Origin: a virus
Direction: 5' to 3' (one strand)
IMG/VR virus record: IMGVR_UViG_3300042402_003181
DNA: 64,000 bases
Part shown: one piece after another, positions 4,301 through 23,100 of the stretch
How positions within the stretch are numbered: the stretch's first letter is position 1
Layout: each line of letters starts with the position of its first letter
Program-made: the position numbers and the translations under genes
The notes under the pieces: generated by a model
Databases searched by the model: none
What the model was told of the DNA's origin: nothing
What the model saw: the letters and a program-made list of their open reading frames with translations, nothing else

Positions 4301-7300
4301 TGCAAGATCATATTATAGCAATAATAATTTTGTTGAATTAATTACTGAAAAACCTGCAGCATTGGCTGTTCAAGATAGAATTAAAACAATTATCGCAAGC
4401 ATTGCACAAGGCACTGCGATTACTAGAACTACCGGAAACACTACTACGCAAGATGTTAGTGGTTCGGGAGGTTCGACGAATGCTGGTACATTTGCACAAG
4501 ATCGTATTCAAGAAATTTATAATACTATAAACACCGGAATTACACCAACATTACTTGCACCAACAACAAGTTGGGTTGCTAGCGGTCTAGTTGCAGCAAA
4601 TACTGCATTACAAGCAGCAAAATCACAAATACAACTTGATTGTCTAGCGTATGTTAAAGCGCATAATGCAACATTATTGTTTAATCAAACTACGTGTTCG
4701 CGAGATGTTGGATATATGATTGACGCAATTGGGTATGATATGATGTTTGGAAGTAATTTCTTATCATGTCAAACTGGCATGTCGTATTACAGAGCAGTAG
4801 CGTCGGCACAAATTGTATTATCAGGACAAAAATCTGCAACTTTAGGAATGATAACGTTCTTAAAATATACTGCAAAATATATTGCAGCATCGGGATCAGC
4901 AGCACTTGCTAATGCATTGTGGACAGATGTTATTGCAAATATGAGCGGAACAAGTGTTCCAAATGCAGGCAGCAACTTTACAAATGCAAGTAATGACGCA
5001 ATTAATGGCGCATATCAGTTGCTTGCAAATGCTGATTTTCTTGCAGCTGAATCAGTTGCGTATATTAATACATTTAATACTACTGTTACTGCAAGTTCAA
5101 CTACTACATTCACATGTACAAGCACCAGTTGGATGGTAGCCGGAGACAAAATTACATTTACTGGATCAATATTTGGTGGAATTAATTTAAGTGTTAACTA
5201 TTATATTCATACAGTAGTTAACGGAGTTTCGTTTAAAATTTCATCTACAGTAGGTGGATCTGCAGAAACCTTAACTACTGGTACTGGATCTATGATTGTT
5301 TCTTATGTTTATGATCCAATTTCGTGTGCAAGAGATATGAAAATTTTAGTAACTTCAGTTGCTAATGACATTATTAATATTGGAAATTATTCATCTCAAT
5401 GGAGTGCAGCGTGTTATTCAACTGCAGTATCTGGTTCTCTGTTATCTGATATGTTCTATGTTAGAAATTCAACAGGTATTAGGAATTTAACAGTACAGGG
5501 ATTAACTGGCACTTTAGGACCTGTAAATAGCTATGGTACAAAACGTCCAACTGCTGGCGCATATGTTAGTTTAGACCCAGGTTGGGGACCAAATGATAGA
5601 CGTACCTGGATTACATCACGGTCACCGTATATTCAAAATGTTACAACATTTGGTACAGGGTGTATTGGGTTAAAGATTGATGGAACTATACACAGTGGCG
5701 GAAACCGTTCTGTTGTAGCAAACGACTTTACTCAAATTTTAAGTGACGGTATTGGTGTTTGGTGTACTGGTTCACAATCATTAACTGAATTAGTATCTGT
5801 GTTTTCGTACTACGGATATATGGGATACTTAGCTGAGAACGGCGGTAAAATTCGTGCTACTAATGGTAACAGCTCGTATGGTACGTATGGCACAGTTGCT
5901 GAAGGTGTTGATATTTATGAAACTCCATTGATTGCAACGGTTAACAATTATGCTAACCAAGCACTTATTACTAATGTAATAACTAACGCAGTTGATAGAA
6001 TTTACAGAGTTGAATTCTTAAATGCTGGTACAAAGTACAATACTGCTACATTTTCATTTAGTGGAACAGGTTACGGTGCAGTATCAGTTGCTAACGAATT
6101 TAGAGATAACGCAGTGTTTGAAACAAAATTGTTATCAAATGGTGAAAATTATGTAACATCTGCTAACACTGGACAGTCAGGCAATACTACATCAATAACC
6201 ATTGCTGCAGTTGATTTGGCAATTAATTCAACATATATTGGAATGAGCATTCAAATAACTAGTGGTTTAGGAACAGGACAATACGGCTATATTGTAAGAT
6301 ATAATTCAGGATCTAAAGTAGCAATGGTTGCAAAAGAAAGTTTCAGTGCAATAGTTGCAACCGGAACGACTGTTACTTCAAATCTAATCACAGTTCCGAG
6401 TACTGCTACATTATATGTTAACATGCCGGTTATATTTACCGGAACTGCAATTGGTGGATTAGCAGTTGGAACAGTGTACTATGTAATTTCTACAGGATTT
6501 ACATCAACTCAATTTTCAGTTAGCACAAGCGTTGGAGGATCAGCAGTTACTTTATCGACAATAACTGCAAGTACAATGACTTTAAATGCTGCAGGATGGG
6601 ATCATGTGGTATCAGGTACTCCAATTCTAGCAGCGTTAGATACTACCTCATCGTATATAATTGAACCAAGAGTACAATTTGCAAGTCCTGGTTATTCTGC
6701 AACGTCAGTAACACAACAAAATGCTGCATGGATTGATTCAATTTACGGGGATATTAATACTACGTATACAGCAGTATCACCGACTGGGGGTGCTGGTACA
6801 AGTGCAACATTTAATATAGTTAAAACTGGTGTATCATATGCAGTTACTTTAAATGCAGGCGGTATTAATTATGTTAAAGACAATGTATTAACTATATTAG
6901 GTACGAGTTTAGGCGGAGCTGCTCCATTAAACAACTTAACGATTACTGTAAATAACGTTGTAAACGGTGTTATTAGTAACTTTACATATAACGGTTTAGG
7001 AGCTGGCGGTAATTATGTTGCAATCGCAGGTTCAGGTACATTAACTCAATATAGTGTTGATGGTACTAATTGGGTCACAGGAGGAGCTCTTCCAGTTAGT
7101 TCGTCATGGACTGCAGTAACTTATGGTACATTAAGCGGAGTAGGTACATGGGTTGCAGTACAAAACGGATCATTAAATACTGCAAAAAGTGTAGATGGCG
7201 GCGCAACATGGTCAAGTGCAGGATCGTTATCAACAACAGGTAATTGGTCAGATGTTGCATACGGCAATAATAGATACATTGCAGTGTTATCCGGATCAGC

Positions 7301-8867
7301 TACTGCTAATATTACATCAAATGCTACTGTATGGACATCAACTGGTGCATTACCTACGCCTACTACGTGGACTAGTGTTGCATATGGAGCAGGTACATGG
7401 GTAGCAATTGCAAGTGGTGGCACATCTGCTGCATATTCAATTAATGACGGAACTTCATGGACACCTGCAGCATTACCAGTTGCTGCAACGTGGAAAAGTG
7501 TTACGTATGGTAATGGTAAATTTGTAGCAATTGCAAGTGGAAGTACTATTGCTGCATATTCGTTAAATGGTATCACATGGTACTCAAGTCAGCCGTTGCC
7601 AGCATCGCAAGCATGGACACAAGTAAAATACGGACAAGGTGTATTCTTTGCAGTAGCAACCGGTACTACAACTATTGCTGCATCGTCAGAAGATGGAATT
7701 GCATGGATTAGCAGAACGTTATTAACATCAACATCTTGGCCTACTGTATCATTTGGTAATCCAAATAGTACTCCAATTTGGGCAGCGTTATCAAGTGCAA
7801 CTACGACTGCTAACAATATTGTTACTGGTGCAACGGCTCAAGGTCGTGTTAAAGTATCGTCAGGTTCTATATCAGAATTTAGAATTGTTGAACCTGGAAG
7901 CGGTTACAATGCAATACCAATTGTAACTGTAACTGACTCAAACGTAACCGCTCCATTTACATGGCAAGTAAGAACAGGGGTAGGTGTATTAGCAAACCCG
8001 ACATTTAATAATAGAGGAACCCAGTATTCAGTTGCATCTGCAAGCGTAATTGGTAACGGATATGCTGATATGTTCCAACCAGGAAATTATGTTAATATTT
8101 CAGGTTTAGCATCAGCTCCAATTCCAGGTTCAAATGTTGTATTTACTGGGGATCCAACTTATTATAAATTGGTTGCAGTATTGAATTATATGGGGACTGG
8201 CGGAGGGCAATCCCCATATAACGCCACACTACAGCTAAGTCCTGCAGTACCAATTGCAAATGCGCCAGCACACGGAGTTATTGCAACTATGCGAATTCAA
8301 TATAGTCAAGTTCGATTAACAGGACACGACTTTTTAAATATTGGAACTGGTAATTTTCCAAGCACTAACTTCCCTGGTGCACCTGCATTAGCAGTTGATT
8401 CAGAAAAACAAACTGTGGCATTTGGCGGCGGACGGGTATTCTATACAAGCACTGACCAAGATGGTAACTTTACGGTAGGTAATTTGTTCTCAGTACAACA
8501 ATCAACTGGTGTTGCAACATTGAATGCAGATGCATTTAACATCGCAGGGTTAAATCAGTTAACATTAGGTTCAGTAACATTAGGCGGCACAAGTGCTACT
8601 ATTACTTCATTTTCAACTGATCCGTATTTTACAGCAAATAGCGATAATGTAATACCAACACAAAAAGCTATTAAATCATATATTAGTAGCCAAATCGGTG
8701 GAGGTGGTAGTTCTCTGAACGTAAATACAATAACCGCAGGTGTTGTGTATATTGCAGGCAACACTATTTCAACAACAACGGGTGTACAGATCAATGTAGC
8801 AAACACTATGAATTTCATAGGCGGTGTATCTGGATCACCGCTAGCAATGAACTTCTTATTATCTTAA
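1374..8867 (+). CDS. 2497-aa modular virion structural/tail-fibre-like protein: N-terminal carbohydrate-binding-like W..Y..D.V...G..Y.C...HTS repeats, helical CxRD repeats, beta-helix-like region, beta-propeller-like repeats, conserved C-terminal module
   Basis: ORF track; GGAG RBS and AATAAATA upstream; repeats visible in the translation (e.g. WTVSTRYKVNDVVKYGGQTYVCNAGHTS, WTSVAYGAGTWVAIASGG). Confidence 0.8.
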   Translation: MAEFKLGRIRFIWKDEWTPSTSYLRDDVVRNGGKAYVCIAGHTSSVLFTTDLTGIPTKWNQVSDGTTWRSNWTVNTYYNLNDLVKYGGIVYICNNSHNSAATLVLGLEANQSNWTLYATSFDWKSTWTVSTRYKKNDVVKYSGRNYVCNAGHTSAATSALGLENDQGKWDLFTDGFTWLTDWTVSTRYKVNDVVKYGGQTYVCNAGHTSAATATLGLENDQGKWDYFHKGVNYLGQWSGSSVRYTVNDLVNYGADVWICTTYHTSSTLFEESNWARFVEGLTYEDSWDNATLYQPGDIVGYGGYSYISKTNNSNKTPTANASDWSLFTTGFSFIGDWASGQSYLVGDVLRNGAYTYVVTADHTSASNNQPPNVTYWSRLNSGVKWANTNKTYTALAGTNITAAGSSATFDVSTIGTSYTVTKNAGGTGYAANTTIKILGTQVGGLSPFNDVLITVATVSGNAIATITATGYAATWDTSVNYVLGDTISVGPNSYICILAHTSASGNRPDVDVSGQYWNVIAAGAQDSVLTTAGDIPYMSQSGPTRLAIGDPGQVLKVSPTLLPSWGYFGVIDQIYYVGQTGLNNPAPSYGATLDRPWLTVRYAAEQVTNGPLNPNAKYFLTNNRAYIQKEVIGWINSQITNNTLPFTSAFTYNESKCERDIGYVVDALAYDLSHGGNAKVVEVAQSYVSGSYTVLGTQSSQDVAGYNYMLSVINSVIASTSPNTSYQATVTRVSNNLKPVEPGVVTLLSNLVGVITAAITAGVSTNIPAVVSTTYSIFVKTGIYYETLPIIVPDNTSIIGDELRSTNIRPSPSLIASNDIAKSISAVTYIQSITSDIISNTTVASPYQVTVSQDVHLPAGSVGSTSAVTAVSENADVMYTILNGGTVSAPPYTYTDPTSYNTGFLNARRLINANKQFLKDEVTAFMVLNYSSIWTMLGPAGQASCTRDIGYIVDAVYYDLTYGTTLIPCNLATTIVARSYYSNNNFVELITEKPAALAVQDRIKTIIASIAQGTAITRTTGNTTTQDVSGSGGSTNAGTFAQDRIQEIYNTINTGITPTLLAPTTSWVASGLVAANTALQAAKSQIQLDCLAYVKAHNATLLFNQTTCSRDVGYMIDAIGYDMMFGSNFLSCQTGMSYYRAVASAQIVLSGQKSATLGMITFLKYTAKYIAASGSAALANALWTDVIANMSGTSVPNAGSNFTNASNDAINGAYQLLANADFLAAESVAYINTFNTTVTASSTTTFTCTSTSWMVAGDKITFTGSIFGGINLSVNYYIHTVVNGVSFKISSTVGGSAETLTTGTGSMIVSYVYDPISCARDMKILVTSVANDIINIGNYSSQWSAACYSTAVSGSLLSDMFYVRNSTGIRNLTVQGLTGTLGPVNSYGTKRPTAGAYVSLDPGWGPNDRRTWITSRSPYIQNVTTFGTGCIGLKIDGTIHSGGNRSVVANDFTQILSDGIGVWCTGSQSLTELVSVFSYYGYMGYLAENGGKIRATNGNSSYGTYGTVAEGVDIYETPLIATVNNYANQALITNVITNAVDRIYRVEFLNAGTKYNTATFSFSGTGYGAVSVANEFRDNAVFETKLLSNGENYVTSANTGQSGNTTSITIAAVDLAINSTYIGMSIQITSGLGTGQYGYIVRYNSGSKVAMVAKESFSAIVATGTTVTSNLITVPSTATLYVNMPVIFTGTAIGGLAVGTVYYVISTGFTSTQFSVSTSVGGSAVTLSTITASTMTLNAAGWDHVVSGTPILAALDTTSSYIIEPRVQFASPGYSATSVTQQNAAWIDSIYGDINTTYTAVSPTGGAGTSATFNIVKTGVSYAVTLNAGGINYVKDNVLTILGTSLGGAAPLNNLTITVNNVVNGVISNFTYNGLGAGGNYVAIAGSGTLTQYSVDGTNWVTGGALPVSSSWTAVTYGTLSGVGTWVAVQNGSLNTAKSVDGGATWSSAGSLSTTGNWSDVAYGNNRYIAVLSGSATANITSNATVWTSTGALPTPTTWTSVAYGAGTWVAIASGGTSAAYSINDGTSWTPAALPVAATWKSVTYGNGKFVAIASGSTIAAYSLNGITWYSSQPLPASQAWTQVKYGQGVFFAVATGTTTIAASSEDGIAWISRTLLTSTSWPTVSFGNPNSTPIWAALSSATTTANNIVTGATAQGRVKVSSGSISEFRIVEPGSGYNAIPIVTVTDSNVTAPFTWQVRTGVGVLANPTFNNRGTQYSVASASVIGNGYADMFQPGNYVNISGLASAPIPGSNVVFTGDPTYYKLVAVLNYMGTGGGQSPYNATLQLSPAVPIANAPAHGVIATMRIQYSQVRLTGHDFLNIGTGNFPSTNFPGAPALAVDSEKQTVAFGGGRVFYTSTDQDGNFTVGNLFSVQQSTGVATLNADAFNIAGLNQLTLGSVTLGGTSATITSFSTDPYFTANSDNVIPTQKAIKSYISSQIGGGGSSLNVNTITAGVVYIAGNTISTTTGVQINVANTMNFIGGVSGSPLAMNFLLS
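1751..2048 (+). repeat. Intragenic tandem duplication, 165-nt (55-aa) period
   Basis: ttggacagtatcaacaagatataaa...tatgtgtgtaatgctggtcatacttctgcagcaac...ggtcttgaaaatgatcaaggtaaatgggatt occurs at 1751-1883 and 1916-2048 with high nucleotide identity. Confidence 0.9.
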
Positions 8868-9565: not shown

Positions 9566-10342
9566 ATGGCAAATTTACGAGATTTATCGTTAATTGTTCC
9601 ACCAGTTTTTGCATCGTATGCGCCTAAACAATTAATGATTATGAACGGCAGAGAAGGGGTTGGTGTTACAACCGGAAACACTTGCTGTTGCTGGATAGTG
9701 CCGTCAGGTACAACTTGGGCTACATTTGAAGTATACGGGTCCGGCGGAGACGGCGCTGGTGGGTGTTGTTGTATGGGATCATGCATGGCATCCGGCAATG
9801 GTATGTACGTAGTAAAAACTATTCAAACATGCGGCTGCGCATTTTATAATATTTGTGTTGGTATGTCAGGTTGTTGTTCACCAAACTGTTGCGGCACATG
9901 TGGGTTTCCTAGTTATGTTACAAACACTGCAGGTTCTATGGTTGCGTGTGCTAGTGGAGGAGTAGGCGGTACTACCGGTTGTTGGATGATGTCACAAGCA
10001 AGCTATCAAGGAATTAACTGTGGTGGTAGAGTTTGCGGGTGTTGTGGTCTTGGAGATATGCAATATCCAAGTATGACTCAAGGATCCAAACATAGTAGCT
10101 ATTGTGCAAACCATAATTTTCCATTTTTGTCGGGTACTTATCAATATGCACCAAATACTAGACACGGGCAAGATGACTGTTCGGTTGGGTATGCAGGATC
10201 AGGTTGTATGAAATGGTGTGCATCACCGTCTAATGCAACATCATGGCCCGGCGGCGGCGGTGCAAACGGTCTCGGATGTGGTGGCGCTTGTTGTTGGGGA
10301 AGTTGGGGTACACCTGGAATGGTTTTAATTACATACGGATAA
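9566..10342 (+). CDS. Cys-rich/Gly-rich fibre-tip-like protein A (28 Cys in 258 aa)
   Basis: AAGGAG RBS; CCC motifs; W.VP.G.TWATFEVYG.GG.G and G..GMV.ITY framework of phage Gly-rich domains. Confidence 0.75.
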   Translation: MANLRDLSLIVPPVFASYAPKQLMIMNGREGVGVTTGNTCCCWIVPSGTTWATFEVYGSGGDGAGGCCCMGSCMASGNGMYVVKTIQTCGCAFYNICVGMSGCCSPNCCGTCGFPSYVTNTAGSMVACASGGVGGTTGCWMMSQASYQGINCGGRVCGCCGLGDMQYPSMTQGSKHSSYCANHNFPFLSGTYQYAPNTRHGQDDCSVGYAGSGCMKWCASPSNATSWPGGGGANGLGCGGACCWGSWGTPGMVLITYG

Positions 10343-10354
10343 AGAGGATATAGT

Positions 10355-11029
10355 ATGGCAGAAAATACAAATATAGAAAAAACGTTTACATATGATATTG
10401 CCGACCAATATTTATACCAAACAAATAAATTAAAAAGAAAAGCAGAATGGACGTATAAAGGTCCTGACAAGCTTTGGATTTTTATTGACAGTTCTACTAA
10501 TAAAATTAGTAGTAGATTTCATTATACTGAACGAGATGAGGGTGCAGATGTACCTACCCCAGACGGACAAATTAAAGTGTTAGTAGATGCAACAGTAAAT
10601 CCAGATATTGCAAGTTTAATTCATAACGAATGGGATTACGGATCATTGCCGCATACTACCGAAGAATTACCTAACGGTGCAGTGTATGGTCATCCGGATC
10701 CGATTCCGCCTGATCATACATACGAGTTAACTGAAATTACGTATGATACTAAAAAAAGTAAATTTGTTAAACCGTATCCATGGAAACAACCACATGTATC
10801 GTGGGATGACATTAGTGATCAACGTAATAATTGCTTATCATGGTCAGATCTTCAATATGTACAAGCACCTGAAAATAAAAAAATTGAATGGGAAGAATTT
10901 CGTCAAACGTTAAGAGACTTGCCAACAGTGTTTAAAGATATTGATCCATGGAAAGTTCCATTTCCACATCATCCGGGATCAGAGCCTCCTGTTTTTAGAG
11001 TTGGAGAACCAACTACTGGGAGTACATAA
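10355..11029 (+). CDS. Tail-fibre assembly chaperone-like protein A
   Basis: C-terminal WDDISDQRNNCLSWSD...W.EFRQTLRDLP resembles the phage tail assembly chaperone motif (R..RN.LL..SD...W..YRQ.LRDLP). Confidence 0.75.
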   Translation: MAENTNIEKTFTYDIADQYLYQTNKLKRKAEWTYKGPDKLWIFIDSSTNKISSRFHYTERDEGADVPTPDGQIKVLVDATVNPDIASLIHNEWDYGSLPHTTEELPNGAVYGHPDPIPPDHTYELTEITYDTKKSKFVKPYPWKQPHVSWDDISDQRNNCLSWSDLQYVQAPENKKIEWEEFRQTLRDLPTVFKDIDPWKVPFPHHPGSEPPVFRVGEPTTGST

Positions 11030-11790
11030 TGGCAAGTTTAACTACATTATTTCCCGATAGTAGGTATTCTATTTCAATTGGTGGTGTAACACAGTTATCT
11101 GTATTGTATGTGTACAATACTAATACAACATCTGTTACAAACGGTGGCATTTGTTGCGGATGGACAGTGCCCACAGGCGCTACGTGGGCACTGTTTGACG
11201 TATGGGGAGGCGGCGGCAGCGGCGCCGGGGCATGTTGTTGTCAACAGCCTTTTCAAGCAGGAGCATCGGGATCATATACAAGAAAATATACTCGAGTAAA
11301 TCCTGGTGAGGTTTATACAATCTGTGCAGCCGGATCTGGATGTTGTTCAACAACGTGTTGTGGCGTATGTGGGTATCCGTCGTACGTATGTAATGCATCT
11401 GCAACGTATCCAGTATGTTTGTGTGCAAGCGGCGGATGTGGTGGTCAGTCTCAGTGCTTTATAGCTAATGGAGGATGCTATCCATCATTAAGTTGTGTAA
11501 CTGGTACAACGTGCGGCGGCTCATTAAGTATGTGTGGACATTTTGCAAGCGACCACGGCGGAGGTTCATGTGCATTTGAGCACTGGCATTATGTTCCAGG
11601 TGCTCCTTATAAATCAAGCGGTGTTCGAGTGTCACGTGACAGCTGCGGTCTGCTTAGTGGATGTCAGATGATGGGAGACACTCCTCCATTATTTCCAGCC
11701 GGCGCTGGAGCAACTTCATCAGTACATGGTGGCGCCTGTTGTTGGGGACAATGGGGAGCCGGTGGCATGATAAAAATAACATACAGATAA
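11029..11790 (+). CDS. Cys-rich/Gly-rich fibre-tip-like protein B (25 Cys in 253 aa)
   Basis: Paralogue of 9566-10342; TAATG stop/start coupling to the upstream gene. Confidence 0.75.
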   Translation: MASLTTLFPDSRYSISIGGVTQLSVLYVYNTNTTSVTNGGICCGWTVPTGATWALFDVWGGGGSGAGACCCQQPFQAGASGSYTRKYTRVNPGEVYTICAAGSGCCSTTCCGVCGYPSYVCNASATYPVCLCASGGCGGQSQCFIANGGCYPSLSCVTGTTCGGSLSMCGHFASDHGGGSCAFEHWHYVPGAPYKSSGVRVSRDSCGLLSGCQMMGDTPPLFPAGAGATSSVHGGACCWGQWGAGGMIKITYR

Positions 11791-11799
11791 AGGAATAAT

Positions 11800-12531
11800 A
11801 TGTCAAATTTAAGATCACTAGCATATACTGCAACAACTACCCTTGTACCAAATTACCCAATTGAACTATTAGTGTATAATACATCAATGTCAGGGGCAAA
11901 TGGCGGATGCTGCTGTTTATGGACAGCACCAGCTGGTACTACTAATATAATATTTGAATTATGGGGTGGAGGAGGCGGTGGCGGTATGGCATGTTGTTGT
12001 CAATACGGACCAGGCGGTGGCGCCGGTGGGTATGCGAAAAAAACAATTTCTGGTAAGTTAGCCGGTTGCCAATATACTATATGCGCTGCTAGCAGTACCG
12101 GATGTTCTCAATCACTAACAGGTTGTACTGGATCAACTTCGTATGTGACAGGATACGGCTTATCAAATTTCTGCGGTGCAGGGGGTAGCGGCGGATGTAC
12201 ACAATGTTTTGCATTTGGAAGTTGTTATATTTGTAATGTATCCGGATGTTGTGCAATAGCAACTGGTGGAGATGTGTGTGCTGCTGGTTATACTGGTTCG
12301 GCAATACAAAATACATTTTGTTATTTCAAATCACAGCAATTTTCTGCTCTTGCGGCATCAACCGGATCCGGTGCGTGGGCAGGACCGGGAGGTTGCGGAC
12401 CAATGGGGGGTGGTGGCACATGGACTCCGTATTTTCCAGGCGGCGGCGGATGGAACGCAAATGTTTCTGGAAACGTTTGCTGTTACGGCGGATGGGGCGC
12501 AGGCGGGCTAGTATCAATTACTTACGGATAA
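11800..12531 (+). CDS. Cys-rich/Gly-rich fibre-tip-like protein C (22 Cys in 243 aa)
   Basis: Paralogue of A and B; AAGGA RBS. Confidence 0.75.
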   Translation: MSNLRSLAYTATTTLVPNYPIELLVYNTSMSGANGGCCCLWTAPAGTTNIIFELWGGGGGGGMACCCQYGPGGGAGGYAKKTISGKLAGCQYTICAASSTGCSQSLTGCTGSTSYVTGYGLSNFCGAGGSGGCTQCFAFGSCYICNVSGCCAIATGGDVCAAGYTGSAIQNTFCYFKSQQFSALAASTGSGAWAGPGGCGPMGGGGTWTPYFPGGGGWNANVSGNVCCYGGWGAGGLVSITYG

Positions 12532-12535
12532 TAAT

Positions 12536-13183
12536 ATGAATAAAATTACACATACATTTACATACGACTTACCGGATGATTACTTAGCACAAACTAATAT
12601 ACTCGGTAAAGTTGCAACTTGGACATATAATGGTCCAGATAAAATTTGGATTTTTTTAGACAAAGAAACTAATAAAATTGTTGGAAATTTTTTAACTGAA
12701 GATGATAAAGGCGGAGAAATACCAGTTCCATTAGATCAATATCGAATAGAAATTGATCCTACAGTTGATCCAATTATAGCAACATTAGTTGGTGCAGATG
12801 AACTGCCCGATTATGCAACTTTAGAACAATATACCGAAGAATTGCCGTGTGGTAATACGTATACTCGTCCATTATGTCCACCACCTGACCATACATATGA
12901 ATTATTAGACATTACGTACGATGTTGAAAATTCTACGTTTGTAACTCCACTTCCGTGGAAACAACCACATATAACATGGGATGGTATTAGACAATGGCGG
13001 AATCATTTATTAGATGGTTCTGATTATAATGAATTGCCAGATATGCCAGCTGCGGTGTTATCTAACTGGGTAGCGTATCGACAAGGATTGCGTGATTTAC
13101 CGCAAACATACGGTGCGTCAAGTGGTTCAACTATTCCACCGGTTGATCCGTGGAAAATCCAACCAATTAATCCACCAAATTAA
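12536..13183 (+). CDS. Tail-fibre assembly chaperone-like protein B
   Basis: Paralogue of 10355-11029 (TFTYD..D.YL.QTN, PPDHTYEL..ITYD, PWKQPH..WD, YRQGLRDLP, DPWK). Confidence 0.75.
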   Translation: MNKITHTFTYDLPDDYLAQTNILGKVATWTYNGPDKIWIFLDKETNKIVGNFLTEDDKGGEIPVPLDQYRIEIDPTVDPIIATLVGADELPDYATLEQYTEELPCGNTYTRPLCPPPDHTYELLDITYDVENSTFVTPLPWKQPHITWDGIRQWRNHLLDGSDYNELPDMPAAVLSNWVAYRQGLRDLPQTYGASSGSTIPPVDPWKIQPINPPN

Positions 13184-13191
13184 CAGTCATT

Positions 13192-13219
13192 AAAAAAGGA
13201 GCTAATAGCTCCTTTTTTA
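13192..13219. terminator. Bidirectional rho-independent terminator between convergent operons
   Basis: aaaaaa-ggagct-aat-agctcc-ttttttt: perfect stem flanked by A and T tracts. Confidence 0.85.
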
Positions 13220-15022
13220 TTAGTTAGCAACTTTGATTATTTTTTGTAATTCTGGAAGATAAACATATTCAATTTTACTATGGTATAACGTATGCACTGC
13301 ATCGTCTAAAGTTTCTACTAAGGGATCTCCACCTAGATTAAAACTAGTGTTAAATAATATTGGAACTCCTGTCTTTTCATAAAAGTCATTAATTAAATTG
13401 TAATAATGATAATTTTGTTCAGAAGTTACTGTTTGAATTCTGCAAGTATCATCAACATGAATAATACTTGGAATTTTTTCTTTAACACCCGGTTGGCAAT
13501 TTACAGCATACATCATATAAGGACTGTCTTCCATTCCTTTTAAATCAAACCATTCATGAACATGCTCTTGTAAGATTGAACCGGCAAACGGTCTAAAGTA
13601 TTCTCTGTTTTTAATTTGATTAACAAAGTCTTTTCCATCTTCATATGTTGGATTAAACATTAATGATCTGTTACCTAATGCACGAGGTCCATTTTCAGAT
13701 CTTCCTTGGAACATTGCAACGATATTTTTATTTAAAAGCAAATCAACTACTGTACTATTATCGGCATCTAATATTTCAGCTCCATACCAGTTAACATATT
13801 TTTGCAAATCGTCATCTGTATAATTGTATTCAAATCCAAGATATAATCTGTTTTTAGTATGATCAACATGCATGTGAGGATATTTTCTGTTAAACACTAA
13901 TAATGCTGCACCTATTGCAGTTCCTGCATCATTACTAATTGGTTCAACATATAATTTAATACCTTCTTCTGCTAATTGGTCTAAGTATGAATAATTTGCT
14001 ACGCAATTTAATCCATAACCCCCACTTAACACTACTTGCTTTTGACCAGTTTTCTTAACAGCTGATCGAATTAAATCTAATACTTGCTGTTGTGTTTCAG
14101 ACTGGCATGCCCATGCTAAATCTCTTCTATTATCATTTAATGTAACATCAGTTTCTGGCAAATCATTAAGATAATCGTACAACATATAGTTTACAGATGC
14201 GCCATTTGGATATGTTGGAACAATAATATTTCTATTTGCTAATGCTGCAATAGAAGTATCATCAAATAATTTAGGAATTTTATCAGTTGCTTTACCATAC
14301 GGAGCTAATCCCATAGTTTTACCAGCTTCAATAGATGACCATCCGCAATATTGTGTTACTGCTTCATAAACTTTTGTAATGCCTGCTCGATCAGTAATTA
14401 ATGCTTCATGGGTAGATTCCGGTTCTTCATACATTCCGCTATCAAACTCTGTAACTAATGCACCTGGTAACGGACCTCTAACACCAATATGTTTATACAC
14501 AGTTTTAAACCATGTAGGATATGCACAGTCAAAAACTGATTCAGTTTCCCAACCAGTCATTTGTTCACCATTGTTTGAAGTTAATGTAATAAACGTACCT
14601 GCACCGTCTACAATTACTGCAGTTGCTTCTCTAAATCCAGATCTATAAAATGCACATGCAGCATGCAATTTATGATGATAATGACTTAGATCAATCACTT
14701 GAGGGTGTTGATACATATTCTCAGTACGACTAATTAATCCTAACTTTCTTGCAAGACCAGTATAAATATCTTCACCAGTAAAATCAACTCTTCCAGCAGT
14801 ATCTGATAATTTTTGAGTATGTGCAATTACAATAAAATCTAATCTATCGGTATAATCTAAAATTTTTAAAAATGCAGCAAACGGCCCGCCGTCATACTTA
14901 TTACGACTAACTCGTTCTTCTTCAATACTAAAAACAATTTCACCGTTTTTAGTTAAGCATACACTACTATTATGTCCTCTAGCGATGCCTGCAATCCAAA
15001 TATCTTTGTTTATTAAATTCAT
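13220..15022 (-). CDS. Carbamoyltransferase, NodU/CmcH/TobZ family (full length: Kae1-like N-domain plus YrdC-like C-domain)
   Basis: GHNSSVCL...FSIEEERVSRNK, HHKLHAACAFY, VIVDGAG, GKTMGLAPYG, SGGYGLNC, GRSENGPRALGNRS, KNREYFRPFA, HVDDTCRIQTV, NTSFNLGG motifs. Confidence 0.93.
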   Translation of the reverse strand: MNLINKDIWIAGIARGHNSSVCLTKNGEIVFSIEEERVSRNKYDGGPFAAFLKILDYTDRLDFIVIAHTQKLSDTAGRVDFTGEDIYTGLARKLGLISRTENMYQHPQVIDLSHYHHKLHAACAFYRSGFREATAVIVDGAGTFITLTSNNGEQMTGWETESVFDCAYPTWFKTVYKHIGVRGPLPGALVTEFDSGMYEEPESTHEALITDRAGITKVYEAVTQYCGWSSIEAGKTMGLAPYGKATDKIPKLFDDTSIAALANRNIIVPTYPNGASVNYMLYDYLNDLPETDVTLNDNRRDLAWACQSETQQQVLDLIRSAVKKTGQKQVVLSGGYGLNCVANYSYLDQLAEEGIKLYVEPISNDAGTAIGAALLVFNRKYPHMHVDHTKNRLYLGFEYNYTDDDLQKYVNWYGAEILDADNSTVVDLLLNKNIVAMFQGRSENGPRALGNRSLMFNPTYEDGKDFVNQIKNREYFRPFAGSILQEHVHEWFDLKGMEDSPYMMYAVNCQPGVKEKIPSIIHVDDTCRIQTVTSEQNYHYYNLINDFYEKTGVPILFNTSFNLGGDPLVETLDDAVHTLYHSKIEYVYLPELQKIIKVAN

Positions 15023-15025
15023 TTT

Positions 15026-15943
15026 TTAAAATCCTTGCGGTGATCCGGGCCACGTTAATTTAGCAGCTTCGGGTGGAAATTTTTCTTTATTTGCAAGTGA
15101 AAAATCAAATGCATATCGATTAGTTCTATATTTTTGGTGTTGCTGATCAATGTAGTCAACTAATAAACCTACAGAATTAAAAAAGTTTTCTGATAACGAT
15201 ATTTTTTCTGATAATTCACTTTTTAACCATAACAAATGTTGCCTTGCTGACGGGTGTAAGTCAGGAAATTTAGAACCATCGGATGCAACGAACTCATAAG
15301 TTAATTCTAAGCAGGTTTGACAAAATTCTTCAAATGGCATTAACCAATGATCTTTGTGATCTTCCCATATTGGTTTTTCATATACCTGTAAATCAGGTAA
15401 AATTGCCCATCCAACGTACCCTGTTGCATGTTTAAGAGCGTTTTTAGTTAACTCAGTTTTTTCACCATAATCTTCTTTATCTCTCATATTAGAACCTAAA
15501 TTACGAATATCACTAATACTTGTCATATACCATTGGCATCCTGTTGATTTTAGTAACCCTTGAGTCATTGAAATAAAGTTTAAAGTATGCATAAAATATG
15601 CAGGTTCGTAAAAAAACGTGTTAACCCATTTTTTATCATATAATTTTACATTATGATAATTGAAGATACTACCGTATGTTTTCCAGCCGTCAACTCGTTC
15701 TGGCATACTTTCTTGATGCCACCAATCGTTTCTTAAATGAGATGACCATTGGACAATTACAATATCATCTTTTGTAAATTGAAATTTAGCATTTGCTTCT
15801 GAAATTCGTTCAGCAATTGCTTGGTTTCCAATACCGGATAACCCCCAATTATGCACTTCGTCAAATTCTAAGTCTAAAAAATTAGCCCATGTAGGCCAGG
15901 AGTAGCAAGTATAACTACATCCAAATGCAAATATTCTTTTCAT
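15026..15943 (-). CDS. SGNH/GDSL-like protein (putative esterase/acyltransferase); start likely MKRIFAFG at 15943
   Basis: FGCSYT block I-like, G.SG.GN block II-like and C-terminal DLHP motif; ATG 1 nt after upstream stop. Confidence 0.55.
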   Translation of the reverse strand: MKRIFAFGCSYTCYSWPTWANFLDLEFDEVHNWGLSGIGNQAIAERISEANAKFQFTKDDIVIVQWSSHLRNDWWHQESMPERVDGWKTYGSIFNYHNVKLYDKKWVNTFFYEPAYFMHTLNFISMTQGLLKSTGCQWYMTSISDIRNLGSNMRDKEDYGEKTELTKNALKHATGYVGWAILPDLQVYEKPIWEDHKDHWLMPFEEFCQTCLELTYEFVASDGSKFPDLHPSARQHLLWLKSELSEKISLSENFFNSVGLLVDYIDQQHQKYRTNRYAFDFSLANKEKFPPEAAKLTWPGSPQGF

Positions 15944-15944
15944 A

Positions 15945-16952
15945 TTATTTTGGGCAGCAAGCTGAAGTTGGAGCAGCAGATGATTCAATTGCTACTGTTG
16001 TATTAACTGGATTTTTAAATTTTCTACTACCTTTTATTACAGAATCAACAATTGCATCTTCAATTTTATCATTCATTATCATAATACCGTCATTACCTCG
16101 ATCAGCAACTTCATCCATTGTTATTCTAATCGGACTGTATCGTCTAATATCTCCACCCATATCTAAAACATCAAACTTATCATAATCCGGATAGGAAACG
16201 TTAATTGAGAATGTTGATCCTACTACAATAGTAGCTGGTTTATCTAACGAATATGCTAAATGTTGTCCTACAGAATCACAACCTAAGAAGTAGTCTGCAT
16301 TTGCAATAATGCCTGCCCATTTACGTAGATCAATGTTTTGTGGCATTGCAACTACGTCTTTACAACCATGTTTAGCAAATTCAATACCAAATTCTGCCAT
16401 TACTACTACTGCAAAATTTTTCTGTAATTTTTTAACAATATTCAGTAAATGAGTACTTTCAAAACTACGTCCAGATGCATCATATATAACACCGTCCTTG
16501 TTAGTTACGCCACGACCAAATGGTTGAAACACAACTACTTTGTCTTTTTTAGTTTTTTCTTTAACTTCTTTAATTGCAAAATAACCTGTAAGCATTTCGT
16601 CATTTGATAACCGCATTGTTGGTTTTTGTAATGTTCTAACGCCTTTATTGTTAATTGCAATATCATATGCTTGCGCAATTGAACATTTTTGATTATAATA
16701 TTCCCAAATACGATATGGTTCTGGAGATACTAAATCCATATTAATAAGTTTATCTTCAAATAAATTTTTGTGCCAATGATCGTACGCACGTTCGTGTAAT
16801 AACGGATGGCCTTTATAAAAGTCAGTGCCGCCTTCGCATACTATAATAAAATCTTTACTAACTTCTTCTGCGTATTTTTCTAATGCTGGTATAGAACAGA
16901 TTACTCTACCTGCTCCTCCATTGATAAAAAACGCTTTTGCTCTTTCTGTCAT
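15945..16952 (-). CDS. GT-B glycosyltransferase, GT9 (heptosyltransferase)-like
   Basis: N-terminal GGAGRVICSIPAL and C-terminal IIANADYFLGCDSVGQHLAYSLDKPATIVVGST match the GT9 D.G..HLA.AL..P...G.T pattern; AAGGAG RBS. Confidence 0.7.
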   Translation of the reverse strand: MTERAKAFFINGGAGRVICSIPALEKYAEEVSKDFIIVCEGGTDFYKGHPLLHERAYDHWHKNLFEDKLINMDLVSPEPYRIWEYYNQKCSIAQAYDIAINNKGVRTLQKPTMRLSNDEMLTGYFAIKEVKEKTKKDKVVVFQPFGRGVTNKDGVIYDASGRSFESTHLLNIVKKLQKNFAVVVMAEFGIEFAKHGCKDVVAMPQNIDLRKWAGIIANADYFLGCDSVGQHLAYSLDKPATIVVGSTFSINVSYPDYDKFDVLDMGGDIRRYSPIRITMDEVADRGNDGIMIMNDKIEDAIVDSVIKGSRKFKNPVNTTVAIESSAAPTSACCPK

Positions 16953-16981
16953 GTGTACTCCTTATTTTTGATTACTATAGT

Positions 16982-17010
16982 ATTTTAGCAGAAAACAAAC
17001 CATAAGTCAA
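16982..17010 (-). promoter_or_regulatory. sigma70-type promoter for the minus-strand modification cassette
   Basis: Minus strand TTGACT-17 nt-TAAAAT with TG extended -10. Confidence 0.65.
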
Positions 17011-17023
17011 TAGTTTTGAGTTA

Positions 17024-17031
17024 GATAAATA
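17024..17031 (+). promoter_or_regulatory. T4-type late promoter (GATAAATA)
   Basis: Variant of TATAAATA upstream of the 17050 structural gene; motif recurs before many structural genes. Confidence 0.6.
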
Positions 17032-17049
17032 TACAAAACGAGAACTATT

Positions 17050-18657
17050 ATGACAGATTTTTTAAGAGGTCCAAACAACACATTTCGATTAAATCATCGG
17101 TATCCATCTTTTGGTAGACCATGGACGCGAGTGTATGCCGATACGTTAATTGACAGTTGGTTTGTTGGCGATTTTTCAAGTGCTAACTACCTCATCACTG
17201 TGGAATTTGATTCAAATCAGAAAGAAACAATGCAGGTATTAGTAATAGCACGACCGGAACATGCAAGTTTTACAATCTACGGTCGTACAAGTATACAAGA
17301 CGAACTTATAACCTTATCAGCTACTGTAACAGCTAGTAAATTATATTTAACTGCGTCTTCTGCAAGTAGTGCATTTGACGGAGCAAAAGTAATTTTTACA
17401 GCAACTTATGCCGAAACAATTAGTCAACTTGGTAAACCTACTGTAGTTCCTGGAACATCGTCCGGCGGAAGTGCGTTAGATCCGATTGATAATGCTCATT
17501 CATTTGGAACTATTGCAGTACTTTCGCAAGAAAATGTAACAGCAGCTGCAGCATCTGATGAAATCACATTTTTAACTGGTAACGGTATTAATATTACTAC
17601 TAATAATACATCAAAGTCAATAACATTTAGTTCAGTTGTTGATCTTTTTAAAACTGTTACTGTTGGTAGTACAGTTATAACCGCATCAGATCCAAATGAT
17701 TCTATAAGATTTTCTGCAAGTAACGGCGTTGCAATAACTGCATCTACATTAACTAATACAATTTCATTATCAGCTACAGGTATACTAAGTAGTTTAGATG
17801 TGTCTGGTGATAGTACACTTAATACGTTAACTGTTTCCGGAAATACTATATTATCAAATTTAACAGTTAATGGTAATTTAATAATTAACGGGTCTACTAC
17901 ATCTGTAAATTCTACTGCATTAACTATTGCTGATTACAATATTACATTAGCACAAGGTGCAACAACATCTCAACTTGCAAATGGATCAGGTATTACTATT
18001 GCAGGCGCTCTTGCATCATTGAACTGGGATCATTCTACATCAAGTTGGCAATCAAATAAGATCATTACACCATCAGTAAACAATGCGCTAACATTAGGCA
18101 CATCTGGAATGTTATGGCAGAATGTATATGCTACTACATTAACTGGTACATTAGCTGCCGGAGCTCAACCTAATATTACTGCGTTAGGTTCATTGAGTAC
18201 ACTAACTGTAAATGGATTAGCATCATTTAATGGGACATCAACATTTACCGGCAGTGTATCTGCAGCTACAGTATCAGTTAGTGGAATATTAGATGTAACT
18301 TCAACAAGAGAAACTGTAGTTGATGTTACTAGTGCATCGACTGTTAATTACGATTATGCAGCATCATCAATATTTTATCATTCTACTAGTCCAGCTGTAG
18401 ATTGGATTGCAAATTTTGCAAATTTACCTAATACAGTAAATGGTAAATCGATTACACTTAATATTATTGTGCCACAAGGCAGTACTGCTTATAAAATTTC
18501 ATCGGTTACAATAGCCGGCGTATCGCAAACAATATTATGGTCGGGATCTTCATTGCCAGCTGGCACTGCAAGTAAAACTGATATATGGGCTTTTACATTT
18601 ATAAGACGAAGTAATGCATGGACATTGTTTGGTTCACGTTCGGCAAATTTTGGATAA
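17050..18657 (+). CDS. Tail fibre-like structural protein (535 aa)
   Basis: S/T-rich beta repeats; D.NITLA.G...A.G.GITI.G fibre motif; QPNITALGSL motif; C-terminal W.G...P....KTDIWAFTF domain. Confidence 0.7.
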   Translation: MTDFLRGPNNTFRLNHRYPSFGRPWTRVYADTLIDSWFVGDFSSANYLITVEFDSNQKETMQVLVIARPEHASFTIYGRTSIQDELITLSATVTASKLYLTASSASSAFDGAKVIFTATYAETISQLGKPTVVPGTSSGGSALDPIDNAHSFGTIAVLSQENVTAAAASDEITFLTGNGINITTNNTSKSITFSSVVDLFKTVTVGSTVITASDPNDSIRFSASNGVAITASTLTNTISLSATGILSSLDVSGDSTLNTLTVSGNTILSNLTVNGNLIINGSTTSVNSTALTIADYNITLAQGATTSQLANGSGITIAGALASLNWDHSTSSWQSNKIITPSVNNALTLGTSGMLWQNVYATTLTGTLAAGAQPNITALGSLSTLTVNGLASFNGTSTFTGSVSAATVSVSGILDVTSTRETVVDVTSASTVNYDYAASSIFYHSTSPAVDWIANFANLPNTVNGKSITLNIIVPQGSTAYKISSVTIAGVSQTILWSGSSLPAGTASKTDIWAFTFIRRSNAWTLFGSRSANFG

Positions 18658-18660
18658 ACT

Positions 18661-19467
18661 ATGACATTATTGTGTTCATTAAAATCAACTACGTTTTGGG
18701 TTTCTACTACTGGTTCGTTACCGTCTGCTGTTGGCCAACAGGCATATGCATCTGCCGGCACGTATTTTTGGACAGCGCCAATTGGCGTTACATCTGTATG
18801 TGTTGTGTGTGTCGGGGGCGGTGGCGGTGGAGGGTACGGTAATTCTGCTAATTGGAATGGGTCTGCAGGCGGCAATTTAAGATATGCTAACAATATACCA
18901 GTAGTTCCAGGTAATGCGTATACTGTTGTAGTCGGCGCAGGCGGAACTAACTACTTAACTACTGGTAACCCAAACGGAGGAGCTGGTGGTACTAGTTCAT
19001 TCAACGTATCATCTGTAATAGCAACTGGCGGTGGCGGTGGTGGAGCAGTAGCCGGTGTTTCAACATCTTCCGGTAACGTTGGATTCGGCGGTAATGGCGG
19101 TAATGGACTTGTAACTGTTGACGGCGGTGGTGGAGGGGCAGGCGGTTATTCCGGTAACGGCGGTGCCGGTGGCTCGGTTGCCCCTCCGGGAGGAGGCGGC
19201 GCAGGTGGTCGAAACGGGAGCGGTGGCCCAGGTGGGGGTGGGGTTGGAATTTACGGCGAAGGCCCGTCGGGGTCAGTTACAGGCGGCGGAGGGTCAGGCG
19301 GCGGTTCTACAGTCGACGGAAGCGGAGGCGGATCGTATCAAGCAGGCGGCTTGTTTGGTGGAGGCGGCGGTTCTGGATACAGCGGCGGACCAGGCGCAAG
19401 CGGCGCAGTTAGAATAATTTGGGGACCAAACAGATCATTCCCTTCAACTAATACTGGTAATTTATAA
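18661..19467 (+). CDS. Glycine-rich fibre-tip/adhesin-like protein (gp38-like polyglycine domain)
   Basis: WTAP.GVTSV.VV.VGGGGGG, VVPG..YTVVVGAGG, GASGAVRIIW framework; very Gly-rich. Confidence 0.75.
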   Translation: MTLLCSLKSTTFWVSTTGSLPSAVGQQAYASAGTYFWTAPIGVTSVCVVCVGGGGGGGYGNSANWNGSAGGNLRYANNIPVVPGNAYTVVVGAGGTNYLTTGNPNGGAGGTSSFNVSSVIATGGGGGGAVAGVSTSSGNVGFGGNGGNGLVTVDGGGGGAGGYSGNGGAGGSVAPPGGGGAGGRNGSGGPGGGGVGIYGEGPSGSVTGGGGSGGGSTVDGSGGGSYQAGGLFGGGGGSGYSGGPGASGAVRIIWGPNRSFPSTNTGNL

Positions 19468-20108: not shown

Positions 20109-23100
20109 ATGGCAAAACAAAGAATACAAAATTACGTTTTTTTACCCGGTGTTTCGAGTAGCAGTAATGCTTATCCAAATGCGTATTCTCTATTATCAAC
20201 AAATAAAGAATTTTTAAAAGCAGAAACAAAAGCATATATTAATGCACAGATTGCAGTAGATACTGCATCAAACTTATACCCAAATGCAGTTACATTATTA
20301 ACTAATAATAAAGCATTTATTATTGATGAAATTATTGCGTGGGTTGCATATCGTGTAACTAATAATATTTCTCCATTTGTAGGATATACTTATAGCGTGG
20401 CATCTTGTAGACGTGATACTAGTTATCTCATAGATGCGCTTATTTATGACATTAGATACGGTGGCAATGAACAAACTATTGATATTTGTAAAAATATGTG
20501 GCAAGGTGGTGCAGCTCAGTTAATATCTCCTACACAAGAGATTGCAGGGTTTACTCAAATATTTACAATAATTACAAACTTTATTTTACCAAAGACTGCG
20601 TACACAAGCCAACAAAGTCCAGTAACTTCTACACAAAACATAACAGGTACTGCAGGCGAAGCAGCTGTTCCAAATCGTATAAATTCATTACGAGATTTGT
20701 TAACTAATTCAATTCCAAATGGCTTATCTGTATTACCACCAATAACTTATTCGTTAAGAAAGTTTGCAGGATATGCATACAATCAGTCACGTTGCGATCG
20801 TGATATTGGTATGTTATTAGATGCCTATCTATATGATTTAAGATACGGCGGCAATTTTAAAACTAGATACGTGTCGTCTAAATTTTGGAATGGAGTTATT
20901 CCTCAAATTGTAGGCGATAGACAACCTGAGATTACTGCACAGACCTTTTTAAGAGATTTAGTAATTAACACTGTGTTTACTCAAACTGCGTATACACCGT
21001 TGCAAACGACTATTGATATAGTAACTAACGGATTAACTATTGCAGAATCAGGTAGTTCGGCAAGAATAACGTCATTATCAAACGAATTTTTAGGTGTGCT
21101 TACTAACGGATTAACAAGTATGCCAGCGTTAACTACTGGTGTAACTACTATTAAACTACAAGGCAAGTATAAATTAGATTCGATATTGTTAATCACAAAT
21201 ACAACGTCTAATCAAATTTTATATAACTTTAGTGATCCGTCAATAGGCGGCAGTGTGTTTATTGACGATGGATATGTTAGTAACGATTTTTATACAGAAG
21301 AAGATTTTCCATCATTTAGACAAACTACTGACCATGTAACTACCTTAATTTTAGGCGTAGACACATCAACCGGATCGGTTGCAGATGACATTCAAATTTT
21401 TGTAGAAGCTAAAGAACAACGAACTCGTCCGTATGATTATGGTACTGATGCGATTGAACGTCAACGTGTTGCTCAACCGCAATCTATGCTTGACGCTGAC
21501 TTTGAATACGGATTACAACCTACTAAATGGCAAGCTATTGGTATTAGTAGAGGGTATCCATCAGTATACGAAGTGCCTGGCACCGATACTCCGGTATTAA
21601 ATGTTACAACAGACGCTAGTGCAGGAACAGGCGGAACTGGCGAATCAACAATTACGGTAACAACAAGCTCACCTCATGGTTTTACTGTAGGAATGCCATT
21701 TACAATTAAAGCATTAGCAAATAGTATTTCTGGTTTTTCGAGAGCAGAAGGCACGTTTTTAATTAACACAGTTCCAACAACTACAAGCTTTACATATTAT
21801 GCCGTATCTAAAGTTGGGTCAACTAATGGTCAAGTTCTTGCAACAACATATACACAATTAAGAAAAGGAAGTTTCTATACAGGCTCAGCAATCGGAACTC
21901 CGACATTTGCTGTATATAGTAACGGATCAACTACTACATTAACTACTCAATTCATAACTACAGTAGGATCTGATCAGCTTGCATTTACCGGAACTCCGCC
22001 GGCTGTAGGCGCGCCACTATCAGGGTCAGCATCTCTTACATCCGGATCTCAAGTCGCAGGTGTTGTAGGTCCAGGTGGCATTGCATTAACTGCAAACATA
22101 GAAACAAGTGTTAGTATAAACGATACGGTAGTTGTGTTAACGTCGGCATCTGGTGTATTAGAAGGAATGGCAATTGATAACGGCGCAGGTACTGCAATCT
22201 TTGTTAGTAATGTATCCGCAAACACAGTTAGTCTTACTGGTCCAATTGTTACTGCACGGTTAGGGAATACTGCAACTTACTCAAATATATCCGGCACTAA
22301 TATACTAGTTACTACAGCAAGTGCTACATTTAACGTAAGCCGTGTAGACGGTGAATATCAAGCTACTGTTATCGACGGCGGAACTGGTTACATTGAAGGA
22401 AATCGAATTGTAATTTTAGGTACATCAGTAGGAGGTGCTACTCCTTTAAACGATTTAACTATTACAGTATCAACAATATTAGCAGGGGTTATTCAAACAA
22501 TTTCTGTATCTGGAACTAGTATCTCAGGCAACGGATCATATACAAATGTTACTCCAAATACTACTACTTCAGTGTCTGGAGCAGGAGCAACTTTTGATGT
22601 AACACGGTCAAATGCAGGTTACGGATTGCTAATAAATCAATCAGGAACTGGGTTTTTAGTTAGCGAAACTTTAACTATTTTAGGTATAAGCTTAGACGGA
22701 CTAAGTCCGGATAATGATTTAGTTATTACTGTTGATAGTATTAATGTAGATGGGGGGATTGTTACATATTCACTTATTGGCGTTCCTGTTACTAGTAATG
22801 CAGTGTTTGGTACGTTGAGCGGGACAAATGTTGCTGCTGCGGGTACAAATGCGCAATTTAATATTACTAGATCAAATAGTGCATATTCATTAACTATTAA
22901 TGATCCAGGTATTGGGTACTTTGTTGGAGATCAAATACTAATACTAGGAACCAGTATTGGCGGAGCAACTTCTGCAAACGATGCAACTATACTTGTTACA
23001 GGAGTAACTAACAACACAATTACCTCAGCTACTATTTTAGGTACCTCGGTTACCGGTGTTACGTTACCGTTCTATTCAGCAATAACTATTAGTGAGTTAA

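Follow-up and report, generated by a model that had tools for sequence, protein, structure and literature searches.

An operon for a putative GT9-like glycosyltransferase, an SGNH-fold protein and a carbamoyltransferase beside cysteine-rich fibre-tip genes in an uncultured T4-like phage

We describe a three-gene operon in the tail-fibre module of an uncultured T4-like phage and weigh what its products may act upon. The operon lies in a 64,000-nucleotide stretch of DNA, hereafter the window, from the IMG/VR virus record IMGVR_UViG_3300042402_003181, a 175,916-base entry estimated to be 48% complete. On the minus strand, it encodes a glycosyltransferase (GT) of GT9-like fold, an SGNH-fold protein, and an O-carbamoyltransferase (CT). 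Facing it on the plus strand is an array of Cys-rich fibre-tip proteins and fibre-chaperone-like proteins. An initial annotation of the window had proposed that the three enzymes build a carbamoylated or acylated glycan and had named three possible targets: the fibre proteins, the host surface, and DNA bases.

The operon, its products and its neighbours

The operon spans 16952-13220; a sigma70-type promoter precedes it, and a strong bidirectional terminator follows it (Table 1). Its three open reading frames (ORFs) lie on the opposite strand as first described, and they are tightly coupled, since the junctions read TAA-N-ATG (genes 1/2) and TAA-AAA-ATG (genes 2/3). Judged from sequence, none of the three proteins carries a signal peptide.

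Table 1. Features of the operon, the facing array and the flanking signals (window coordinates)
Feature	Position	Strand	Basis or remark
Two small conserved proteins, 107 and 108 aa	8883..9555	+	Found ahead of the Cys-rich array in nearly all relatives
Cys-rich glycine-rich fibre-tip protein 1, 258 aa, 10.9% Cys	9566..10342	+	phrog_4205, composition, family alignment A4
Tail-fibre assembly chaperone-like protein 1, 224 aa	10355..11029	+	Weak Pfam Phage_tail_APC; phrog_9740, phrog_4912
Cys-rich fibre-tip protein 2, 253 aa, 9.9% Cys	11029..11790	+	PHROG, composition, alignment A4
Cys-rich fibre-tip protein 3, 243 aa, 9.1% Cys	11800..12531	+	Weak Gly_rich_2 member
Tail-fibre assembly chaperone-like protein 2, 215 aa	12536..13183	+	Pfam Phage_tail_APC 44.6 bits, above cut-off
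Bidirectional intrinsic terminator	13191..13219		Perfect 13-bp stem flanked by A run and T run; -15.6 kcal/mol, z = -5.4
NodU/CmcH/TobZ-type O-carbamoyltransferase, 600 aa (gene 3)	13220..15022	-	Pfam, phrog_1601 at 3e-164, PDB
SGNH-fold esterase/acyltransferase-like protein, 305 aa (gene 2)	15026..15943	-	Fold; FGCS(10)xT, G39-N40, R-N72-D, H230-P
GT9-fold heptosyltransferase-like protein, 335 aa (gene 1)	15945..16952	-	phrog_8954; NGGAGR hallmark, D226-S-x-G-x-H231, C-terminal ...SACCPK
Sigma70-type promoter TTGACT-17-(TG)cTAAAAT	16982..17010	-	Kept in all 21 distinct upstream regions from relatives of 70% or higher GT identity
Late-type ATAAATA of divergent fibre gene 17050-18657	17025..17031	+	Back to back with the operon promoter

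Searches of the PDB by sequence and by profile with the GT and SGNH families gave chance-level matches only, so fold comparison was needed for both. For gene 1, fold and weak profile matches together bear out the GT9-like identity first proposed. The AlphaFold2 (AF2) model (pLDDT 76.7) matches 3tov at a VIA Z of 20.7 (root-mean-square deviation, rmsd, 3.7; 277 residues aligned), WaaF at 18.8, TibC at 17.6, and WaaC at 17.2. Its top structural matches, from Z 20.7 to 16.2, are all GT9 and include a GT9-fold NDH subunit; the best non-GT9 GT-B fold reaches Z 12.9. Foldseek against GT9 structures gives E 2e-9. By profile, the window GT scores 14.4 bits against Pfam PF01075 and does not reach the curated cut-off of 22 bits; weak matches to the same profile are found in 30 of 44 diverse members of the GT family (best E 1.9e-7). 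With hhalign, the deep family alignment A3 matches WaaC/WaaF from one end to the other (Prob 90%, E 1.8e-7). This depth was required, as the shallow alignment A1 against a single WaaC or WaaF aligned the donor motif only. Identity to WaaC/WaaF is ~12-15%. The family is large and viral, with 4135 clusters at 90% identity and 527 at 50%.

The donor site of gene 1 is kept. D226 is invariant and aligned to the donor-site residue D261 of WaaC; R162 (at least 90% conserved) is aligned to WaaC K192, a conservative change; and D226, S227, H231, G245, T247, and R162 show little or no variation across 25-50% identity. On the acceptor side, G15-R16 of NGGAGR are aligned to G12-D13 of WaaC, which places Arg16 at the position of the catalytic-base Asp. 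Among 79 representatives of the family, 74 have Arg here and 2 have Lys. The Asp is conserved in all heptosyltransferases, and the D13A exchange costs 4688-fold activity (PMC5713226); its counterpart in TibC is D110 (PMC4358343). With a retained donor site and an altered acceptor-activating residue, gene 1 represents a distinct GT9 branch. One may speculate that the Arg-for-Asp change reflects an acceptor with no need of a general base: a thiolate, a carboxylate, or a phosphate.

The GT ends in ...SACCPK (15945-15965), as the initial annotation had it. This Cys-pair tail is matched by ...KSCCSK in a 27%-identical homologue from Aeromonas phage HJ05 (L084:7995-8918), and a Cys-pair C-terminus occurs in 50 of 120 close relatives and in 6 of 79 diverse family representatives. 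The tail might bind metal, act as a disulphide tether, or mimic a substrate.

Gene 2 most likely starts at ATG 15943, since its homologues begin at MKR; a start at TTG 15988 was rejected. Pfam and PHROG searches with the protein gave no match, and it is the fold that bears out its SGNH identity. The model (pLDDT 83.9) matches TesA at a VIA Z of 12.6 (rmsd 3.4, 164 aligned, within residues 1-250), with Foldseek E values of about 1e-4 to TesA and other GDSL proteins. Almost all of the top 50 structural entries are GDSL/SGNH proteins, and two designed scaffolds are among them. S10 (FGCSxT), G39, N40, N72, and H230 vary little or not at all among 27 homologues (alignment A2), and S10 sits where Ser10 of TesA sits; hhalign to TesA gave no residue alignment. 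The protein carries a C-terminal helical extension of ~55 residues. Its family, with 383 homologues, is confined to viral clusters, and its atlas neighbours are viral GDSL-like/DUF6071 clusters. No homologue of this SGNH protein was found in cultured phages (tblastn against phage records). The copy number downstream of the GT varies: two tandem diverged copies in several relatives, one in the window, and none in others (loci L014, L016, L019, L022, L025, L029, and L052-L054).

The identity of gene 3 as a full-length carbamoyltransferase is borne out by Pfam matches to both domains: the Kae1-like N domain (Carbam_trans_N PF02543) at 93.4 bits (cut-off 24) and the YrdC-like C domain (Carbam_trans_C PF16861) at 193.1 bits (cut-off 27). 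Its PDB matches include 7xb6 at 8e-58 and TobZ at 2e-41, and also NovN and GdmN. Equivalog status with NodU is ruled out (140 bits versus 1000).

On the plus strand, a 2497-aa fibre protein is followed by the 107-aa and 108-aa proteins and then by the Cys-rich/chaperone array, which ends at 13183. The terminator hairpin behind the array was first described as shared between the operon and the Cys-rich genes. The hairpin is present and bidirectional; the partner that shares it is the chaperone-like gene that closes the array, not a Cys-rich gene. Giant Ser/Thr-rich fibres (1374-8867 and 20109-25754) flank the cassette region. Past a 535-aa fibre-like protein, on the side of the cassette away from the Cys-rich array, comes a Gly_rich_2 protein (18661-19467, Pfam 47 bits) that is poor in Cys and very rich in Gly, so that glycine-rich-domain proteins occur on both sides of the cassette. 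An antisense Pro-rich ORF of 109 aa (10141-10470, minus strand) overlaps both the end of Cys-rich gene 1 and the beginning of the chaperone-like gene; most likely it arises only from the Gly/Cys-rich codons on the opposite strand.

Linkage and promoters among relatives

The neighbourhood of the GT was examined in 80 IMG/VR loci (of at least 567 with the GT) and 3 cultured phages, with neighbours mapped by tblastn. Sixty-two loci carry distinct GT sequences, and 55 of these have enough flank to be judged. In all 55, an array of 2-3 Cys-rich proteins and fibre chaperones directly adjoins the cassette: 44 are co-directional (array, GT, CT) and 11 convergent, as in the window. The CT is present in the relatives' cassettes wherever the extent of the contig allows. 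The reverse search, started from the Cys-rich proteins, covered 79 loci (of at least 392 with Cys-rich proteins in IMG/VR). In 73 of them the GT cassette directly adjoins the array, and the remaining 6 break off within ~1 kb of it. Among 50,697 cultured phage records, homologues of the Cys-rich proteins occur only in records that also hold the GT. A Cys content of 7-12% is retained down to P-SSM2, at 44% GT identity. On a rough FastTree phylogeny of the GT, the orientation has flipped at least 2-3 times, with adjacency always retained. The cassette and the array are thus inseparable in both search directions and in cultured phages, which answers the neighbourhood check proposed for the locus. 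By megablast, the operon/array region has zero matches in the same 50,697 records.

The fibre-module genes of the record are akin to those of Kyanoviridae. Because psbA (Photo_RC) gave no match across the 175,916 bases despite this kinship, a cyanobacterial host is not established, and we do not apply the label of cyanophage.

The relatives also point to the sugar. In S-CAM1, S-SSM7, P-SSM2, and at least 11 IMG/VR loci, the GT and CT are followed by genes for a heptose kinase, an adenylyltransferase, GmhA, and an epimerase. These ADP-heptose genes in the cassettes of marine relatives make it probable, by analogy, that the cassette sugar is a heptose. SGNH and heptose genes were never found together in the 47 loci compared: 29 have the SGNH gene only, 9 the heptose genes only, and 9 neither. 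Wherever marine relatives have heptose genes next to the Cys-rich proteins, a small cupin annotated as 'cysteine dioxygenase' goes with them (L001:13223-13576, L003:13364-13720, and equivalents); this cupin may be of the sugar epimerase type or may act on cysteine.

More remote GT homologues (25-27% identity), from Vibrio and Aeromonas phages, keep GGxGR, PEPY, and CDSxGxH and lie among virion/tail genes. Vibrio phage D505 (L085:8001-8738) and ~28 sister records hold a 246-aa GT9-like member that keeps GGLGR and CDSSGLH. Its gene stands between those for a 2109-aa protein and a 1756-aa 'tail protein', with no sugar or carbamoyl genes nearby. IMG/VR scans with two remote family members (P0364 and P0339) returned nothing.

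The initial annotation held that the operon is driven by a sigma70-type rather than a late promoter. A single sigma70 consensus match means little alone, because the region holds 49 such sites where 45 are expected. The element before the operon has an extended -10 (TG) and, downstream, AAGGAG and then ATG; in the window clade it is conserved in position in every distinct upstream region (shuffle mean 4.2). The clade consensus is TTGcTT-17-TGCTAAATT. Co-directional members are included, and in these the element comes after a terminator. TAAATA is found in none of the 21 regions. Among 41 distant upstream regions, TAAATA occurs in 34 (shuffle mean 5) and a sigma70-like site in 4, so that the module is usually a late unit of its own and the sigma70 drive is a clade-specific change. 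The sigma70-type element itself stands; the contrast with late promotion is a trait of the window clade and not of the module.

The 97-bp spacer between the operon and the fibre gene at 17050 also holds gATAAATA, 24 nt upstream of that gene, and NATAAATA is the late promoter of cyanomyoviruses (PMC2984593). TAAATA lies at most 60 nt upstream of 15 of the 52 window genes, and the operon has none. The TAAATA/ATAAATA sites stand 11-38 nt before these 15 starts, mostly at the heads of runs of structural genes; examples are 1343, 9203, 17025, 29165, 30648, 37205, and 58294 on the plus strand and 27675 and 29152 on the minus strand. As motifs, they would fit late promoters of the T4 type in this phage.

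What the operon may modify

We propose, tentatively and with somewhat less than even confidence, that the operon enzymes decorate virion fibre proteins, above all the adjoining Cys-rich tip proteins. The operon would make three cytoplasmic sugar-tailoring enzymes, presumably acting in the order given here. The divergent GT9-fold transferase would bind a nucleotide-sugar, most likely ADP-heptose, and move the sugar to an acceptor. The TobZ/NodU-type enzyme would O-carbamoylate a sugar hydroxyl with carbamoyl phosphate and ATP, as happens on the 7-O-carbamoyl-heptose of the Pseudomonas core, and the SGNH protein would add or remove an O-acyl group. The acceptor would most likely be a virion protein: the Cys-rich, glycine-rich fibre-tip proteins, which may fold with the help of the adjoining fibre chaperones. 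Attachment could be S- or O-linked, and virion proteins and the host surface are both putative targets. The outcome would be a carbamoylated, possibly acylated, sugar on the tips that recognize the host.

Decoration of the fibres is favoured because the linkage holds in both search directions, most relatives carry a late motif, the enzymes are cytoplasmic, and TibC/AAH and the actinobacteriophages offer precedents. Freeman et al. 2023 reportedly described actinobacteriophage virion glycosylation by phage-encoded glycosyltransferases. Some GT9 enzymes do heptosylate proteins, TibC/AAH among them (PMC4358343), and phage-encoded virion glycosylation is established in actinobacteriophages, going by what PMC13313380 cites. 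For the pairing of a GT9 enzyme with a carbamoyltransferase, the chemical precedent is the core 7-O-carbamoyl-heptose made with Pseudomonas WapO (PMC8005017). A narrower version of the proposal is improbable: that a phage-only GT9 branch, with Asp changed to an invariant Arg, glycosylates the Cys-rich tips with a carbamoylated/acylated heptose, possibly S-linked on Cys thiolates or on another acceptor that needs no base.

Several observations weigh against fibre decoration. The GT is without the catalytic-base Asp common to all characterised heptosyltransferases (PMC5713226, PMC4358343), and given this loss its catalysis is a prediction only. It is also without the beta-barrel and the iron finger of TibC. 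In the window clade, the operon is an insulated sigma70-type unit and not a late one. Since structural modules of T4-like phages are syntenic and the carriers are perhaps one lineage, the linkage may represent few independent events. Lastly, SIS_2, CTP_transf_like, Epimerase, and PfkB gave no match in the 176-kb record, which is estimated to be 48% complete. Since no heptose genes were found there, any ADP-heptose would have to be supplied by the host or by genes in the part of the genome that was not sampled.

There are four rival explanations. Enzymes at the cytoplasmic face of the host envelope might add a carbamoylated/acylated sugar to the core of lipopolysaccharide (LPS) or to a lipid-linked glycan, and so alter the infected surface, for example by excluding superinfecting phages or stopping the re-adsorption of progeny. 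We regard such remodelling as a serious competitor, though a less likely one than fibre decoration. A GT9 enzyme and a WapO-type carbamoyltransferase are the LPS inner-core pair of Pseudomonas (PMC8005017), the 'LPS genes' of P-SSM2, S-SSM7, and S-SM2, including T4-GC 304-308 beside the orthologous GT/CT, have been read in this way (PMC3037559, PMC2984593), and the conserved sigma70-type, probably early, promoter of the window clade fits an early function directed at the host. Host remodelling would leave unexplained both the strict linkage to Cys-rich fibre-tip genes and the late-type motif in 34 of 41 distant relatives, and the catalytic Asp that acts on the Kdo acceptor is replaced by Arg. 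Against it also counts that the LPS of marine Synechococcus is reported to be without heptose. Rather less likely again is another cytoplasmic acceptor, which might be a small metabolite, a lipid carrier, or a virion protein other than the Cys-rich ones, for example the giant fibres; the position beside the array would then be inherited synteny only. The cassette always has its own promoter, a terminator separates it from the array, the giant Ser/Thr-rich fibres and the Gly_rich_2 protein flank it, and TobZ, NovN, and GdmN act on small molecules; such an acceptor is opposed by the adjacency, which holds whichever gene the search starts from, persists between deeply diverged relatives, and survives inversions.

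The GT9-like protein might instead be non-catalytic, a scaffold, chaperone, or structural partner of the fibre tip, with the other two enzymes independent of it. Arg in place of the catalytic Asp in 74 of 79 representatives, matches to GT9-fold NDH subunits at Z ~17, and the short (246 aa) Vibrio phage homologues between giant virion proteins without sugar genes all agree with such a role; PnsB1, a GT9-fold subunit of chloroplast NDH, would be a non-catalytic parallel. We consider this quite improbable: donor-site residues are invariant or nearly so across 25-50% identity, the pairing with a carbamoyltransferase is constant, and marine relatives carry a dedicated ADP-heptose pathway. Least probable of all, and very much so, is DNA hypermodification, in which the CT and GT would act on hydroxymethylated bases, the situation in phages with 5-carbamoyloxymethylcytosine. 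Some phage carbamoyltransferases do act on 5-hydroxymethylcytosine (PMC8670742), and the initial annotation had counted DNA bases among the targets. This claim is weakened: no thymidylate-synthase or hydroxymethylase homologue (Thymidylat_synt PF00303) was found in the 176-kb record, estimated to be 48% complete. DNA-modifying carbamoyltransferases co-occur with thymidylate-synthase homologues, and GT-adjoining ones lie on unmodified contigs (PMC8670742). The window enzyme is of this GT-linked type, being an orthologue (46-74% identity) of the GT-linked carbamoyltransferase in all relatives.

For about twenty years, the literature has listed the orthologues in P-SSM2, S-SSM7, and S-CAM1 as unexplained 'LPS genes'. 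If fibre tips are decorated, phage host recognition in lakes and oceans would rest on a post-translational sugar code, and virion glycosylation would extend from actinobacteriophages to T4-like phages, by a different chemistry. If the Arg-branch GT acts on the Cys-rich tips, it would provide the first heptose/carbamoyl virion glycosylation, explain the 'LPS genes' of cyanophages, and give T4-like aquatic phages chemically decorated receptor-binding tips. The Asp-to-Arg clade of GT9 is of enzymological interest in itself. With three relatives in culture, the question is open to direct testing.

Comparison with known systems

WaaC/WaaF (CAZy GT9) and WapO (PA5005) of Pseudomonas belong to the same two enzyme families and, as we infer, share the same chemistry. 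The window GT differs from the Pseudomonas enzymes in its ~12-15% identity, in the change of catalytic Asp13 to Arg, in its place in a phage fibre module, and in an acceptor that is only surmised. The bacterial autotransporter heptosyltransferases (BAHT) TibC/AAH, with the adhesins TibA/AIDA-I, offer a parallel in arrangement: there, the gene for a GT9-fold enzyme stands next to that of the adhesin which the enzyme modifies (PMC4358343). The structural match of the window GT to TibC has Z 17.6 over 262 residues. Unlike TibC/AAH, the window GT has no N-terminal beta-barrel (the model covers TibC 91-393), no four-Cys iron finger, and no equivalent of Asp110, and its candidate substrates are Cys/Gly-rich where the adhesins are Ser-rich beta-helices. 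Membership of BAHT was rejected, as the defining modules are absent.

In actinobacteriophages, as far as the source describes them, glycosyltransferase genes likewise lie near structural genes, and there modify virion proteins. The hosts differ, as do the enzyme families as far as known, and the candidate system described here adds carbamoyl/acyl tailoring, with fibre tips rather than capsid or tail tube as the candidate targets. The SGNH protein shares its fold, and probably its S-G-N-H residue pattern, with SGNH/GDSL esterases and O-acyltransferases (TesA, carbohydrate acetylesterases, and PatB). Unlike proteins of the TesA/PatB type, it has no Pfam match, carries the helical C-terminus of ~55 residues, is cytoplasmic, and belongs to a virus-only family.

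Closest of all is the cyanomyovirus 'LPS gene' cassette (T4-GC 302/303 on): P-SSM2 PSSM2_307-313, S-SSM7 SSSM7_120-131, and S-CAM1 SXBG_00222-216. It has an orthologous GT (44-58% identity) and CT (46-63%), mutually adjacent, at the corresponding position of the tail-fibre module, where 2-3 Cys-rich proteins and a fibre chaperone precede them. In GenBank, its GT is only a 'hypothetical protein', and no function was assigned to the cluster (PMC3037559). The window cassette differs in the SGNH gene between GT and CT, in having no heptose genes, in its inversion, and in its sigma70-type promoter. The orthologous cyanophage genes have been catalogued since 2005-2010 without a function; what is new here is the SGNH-bearing, heptose-gene-free, inverted, and sigma70-driven variant.

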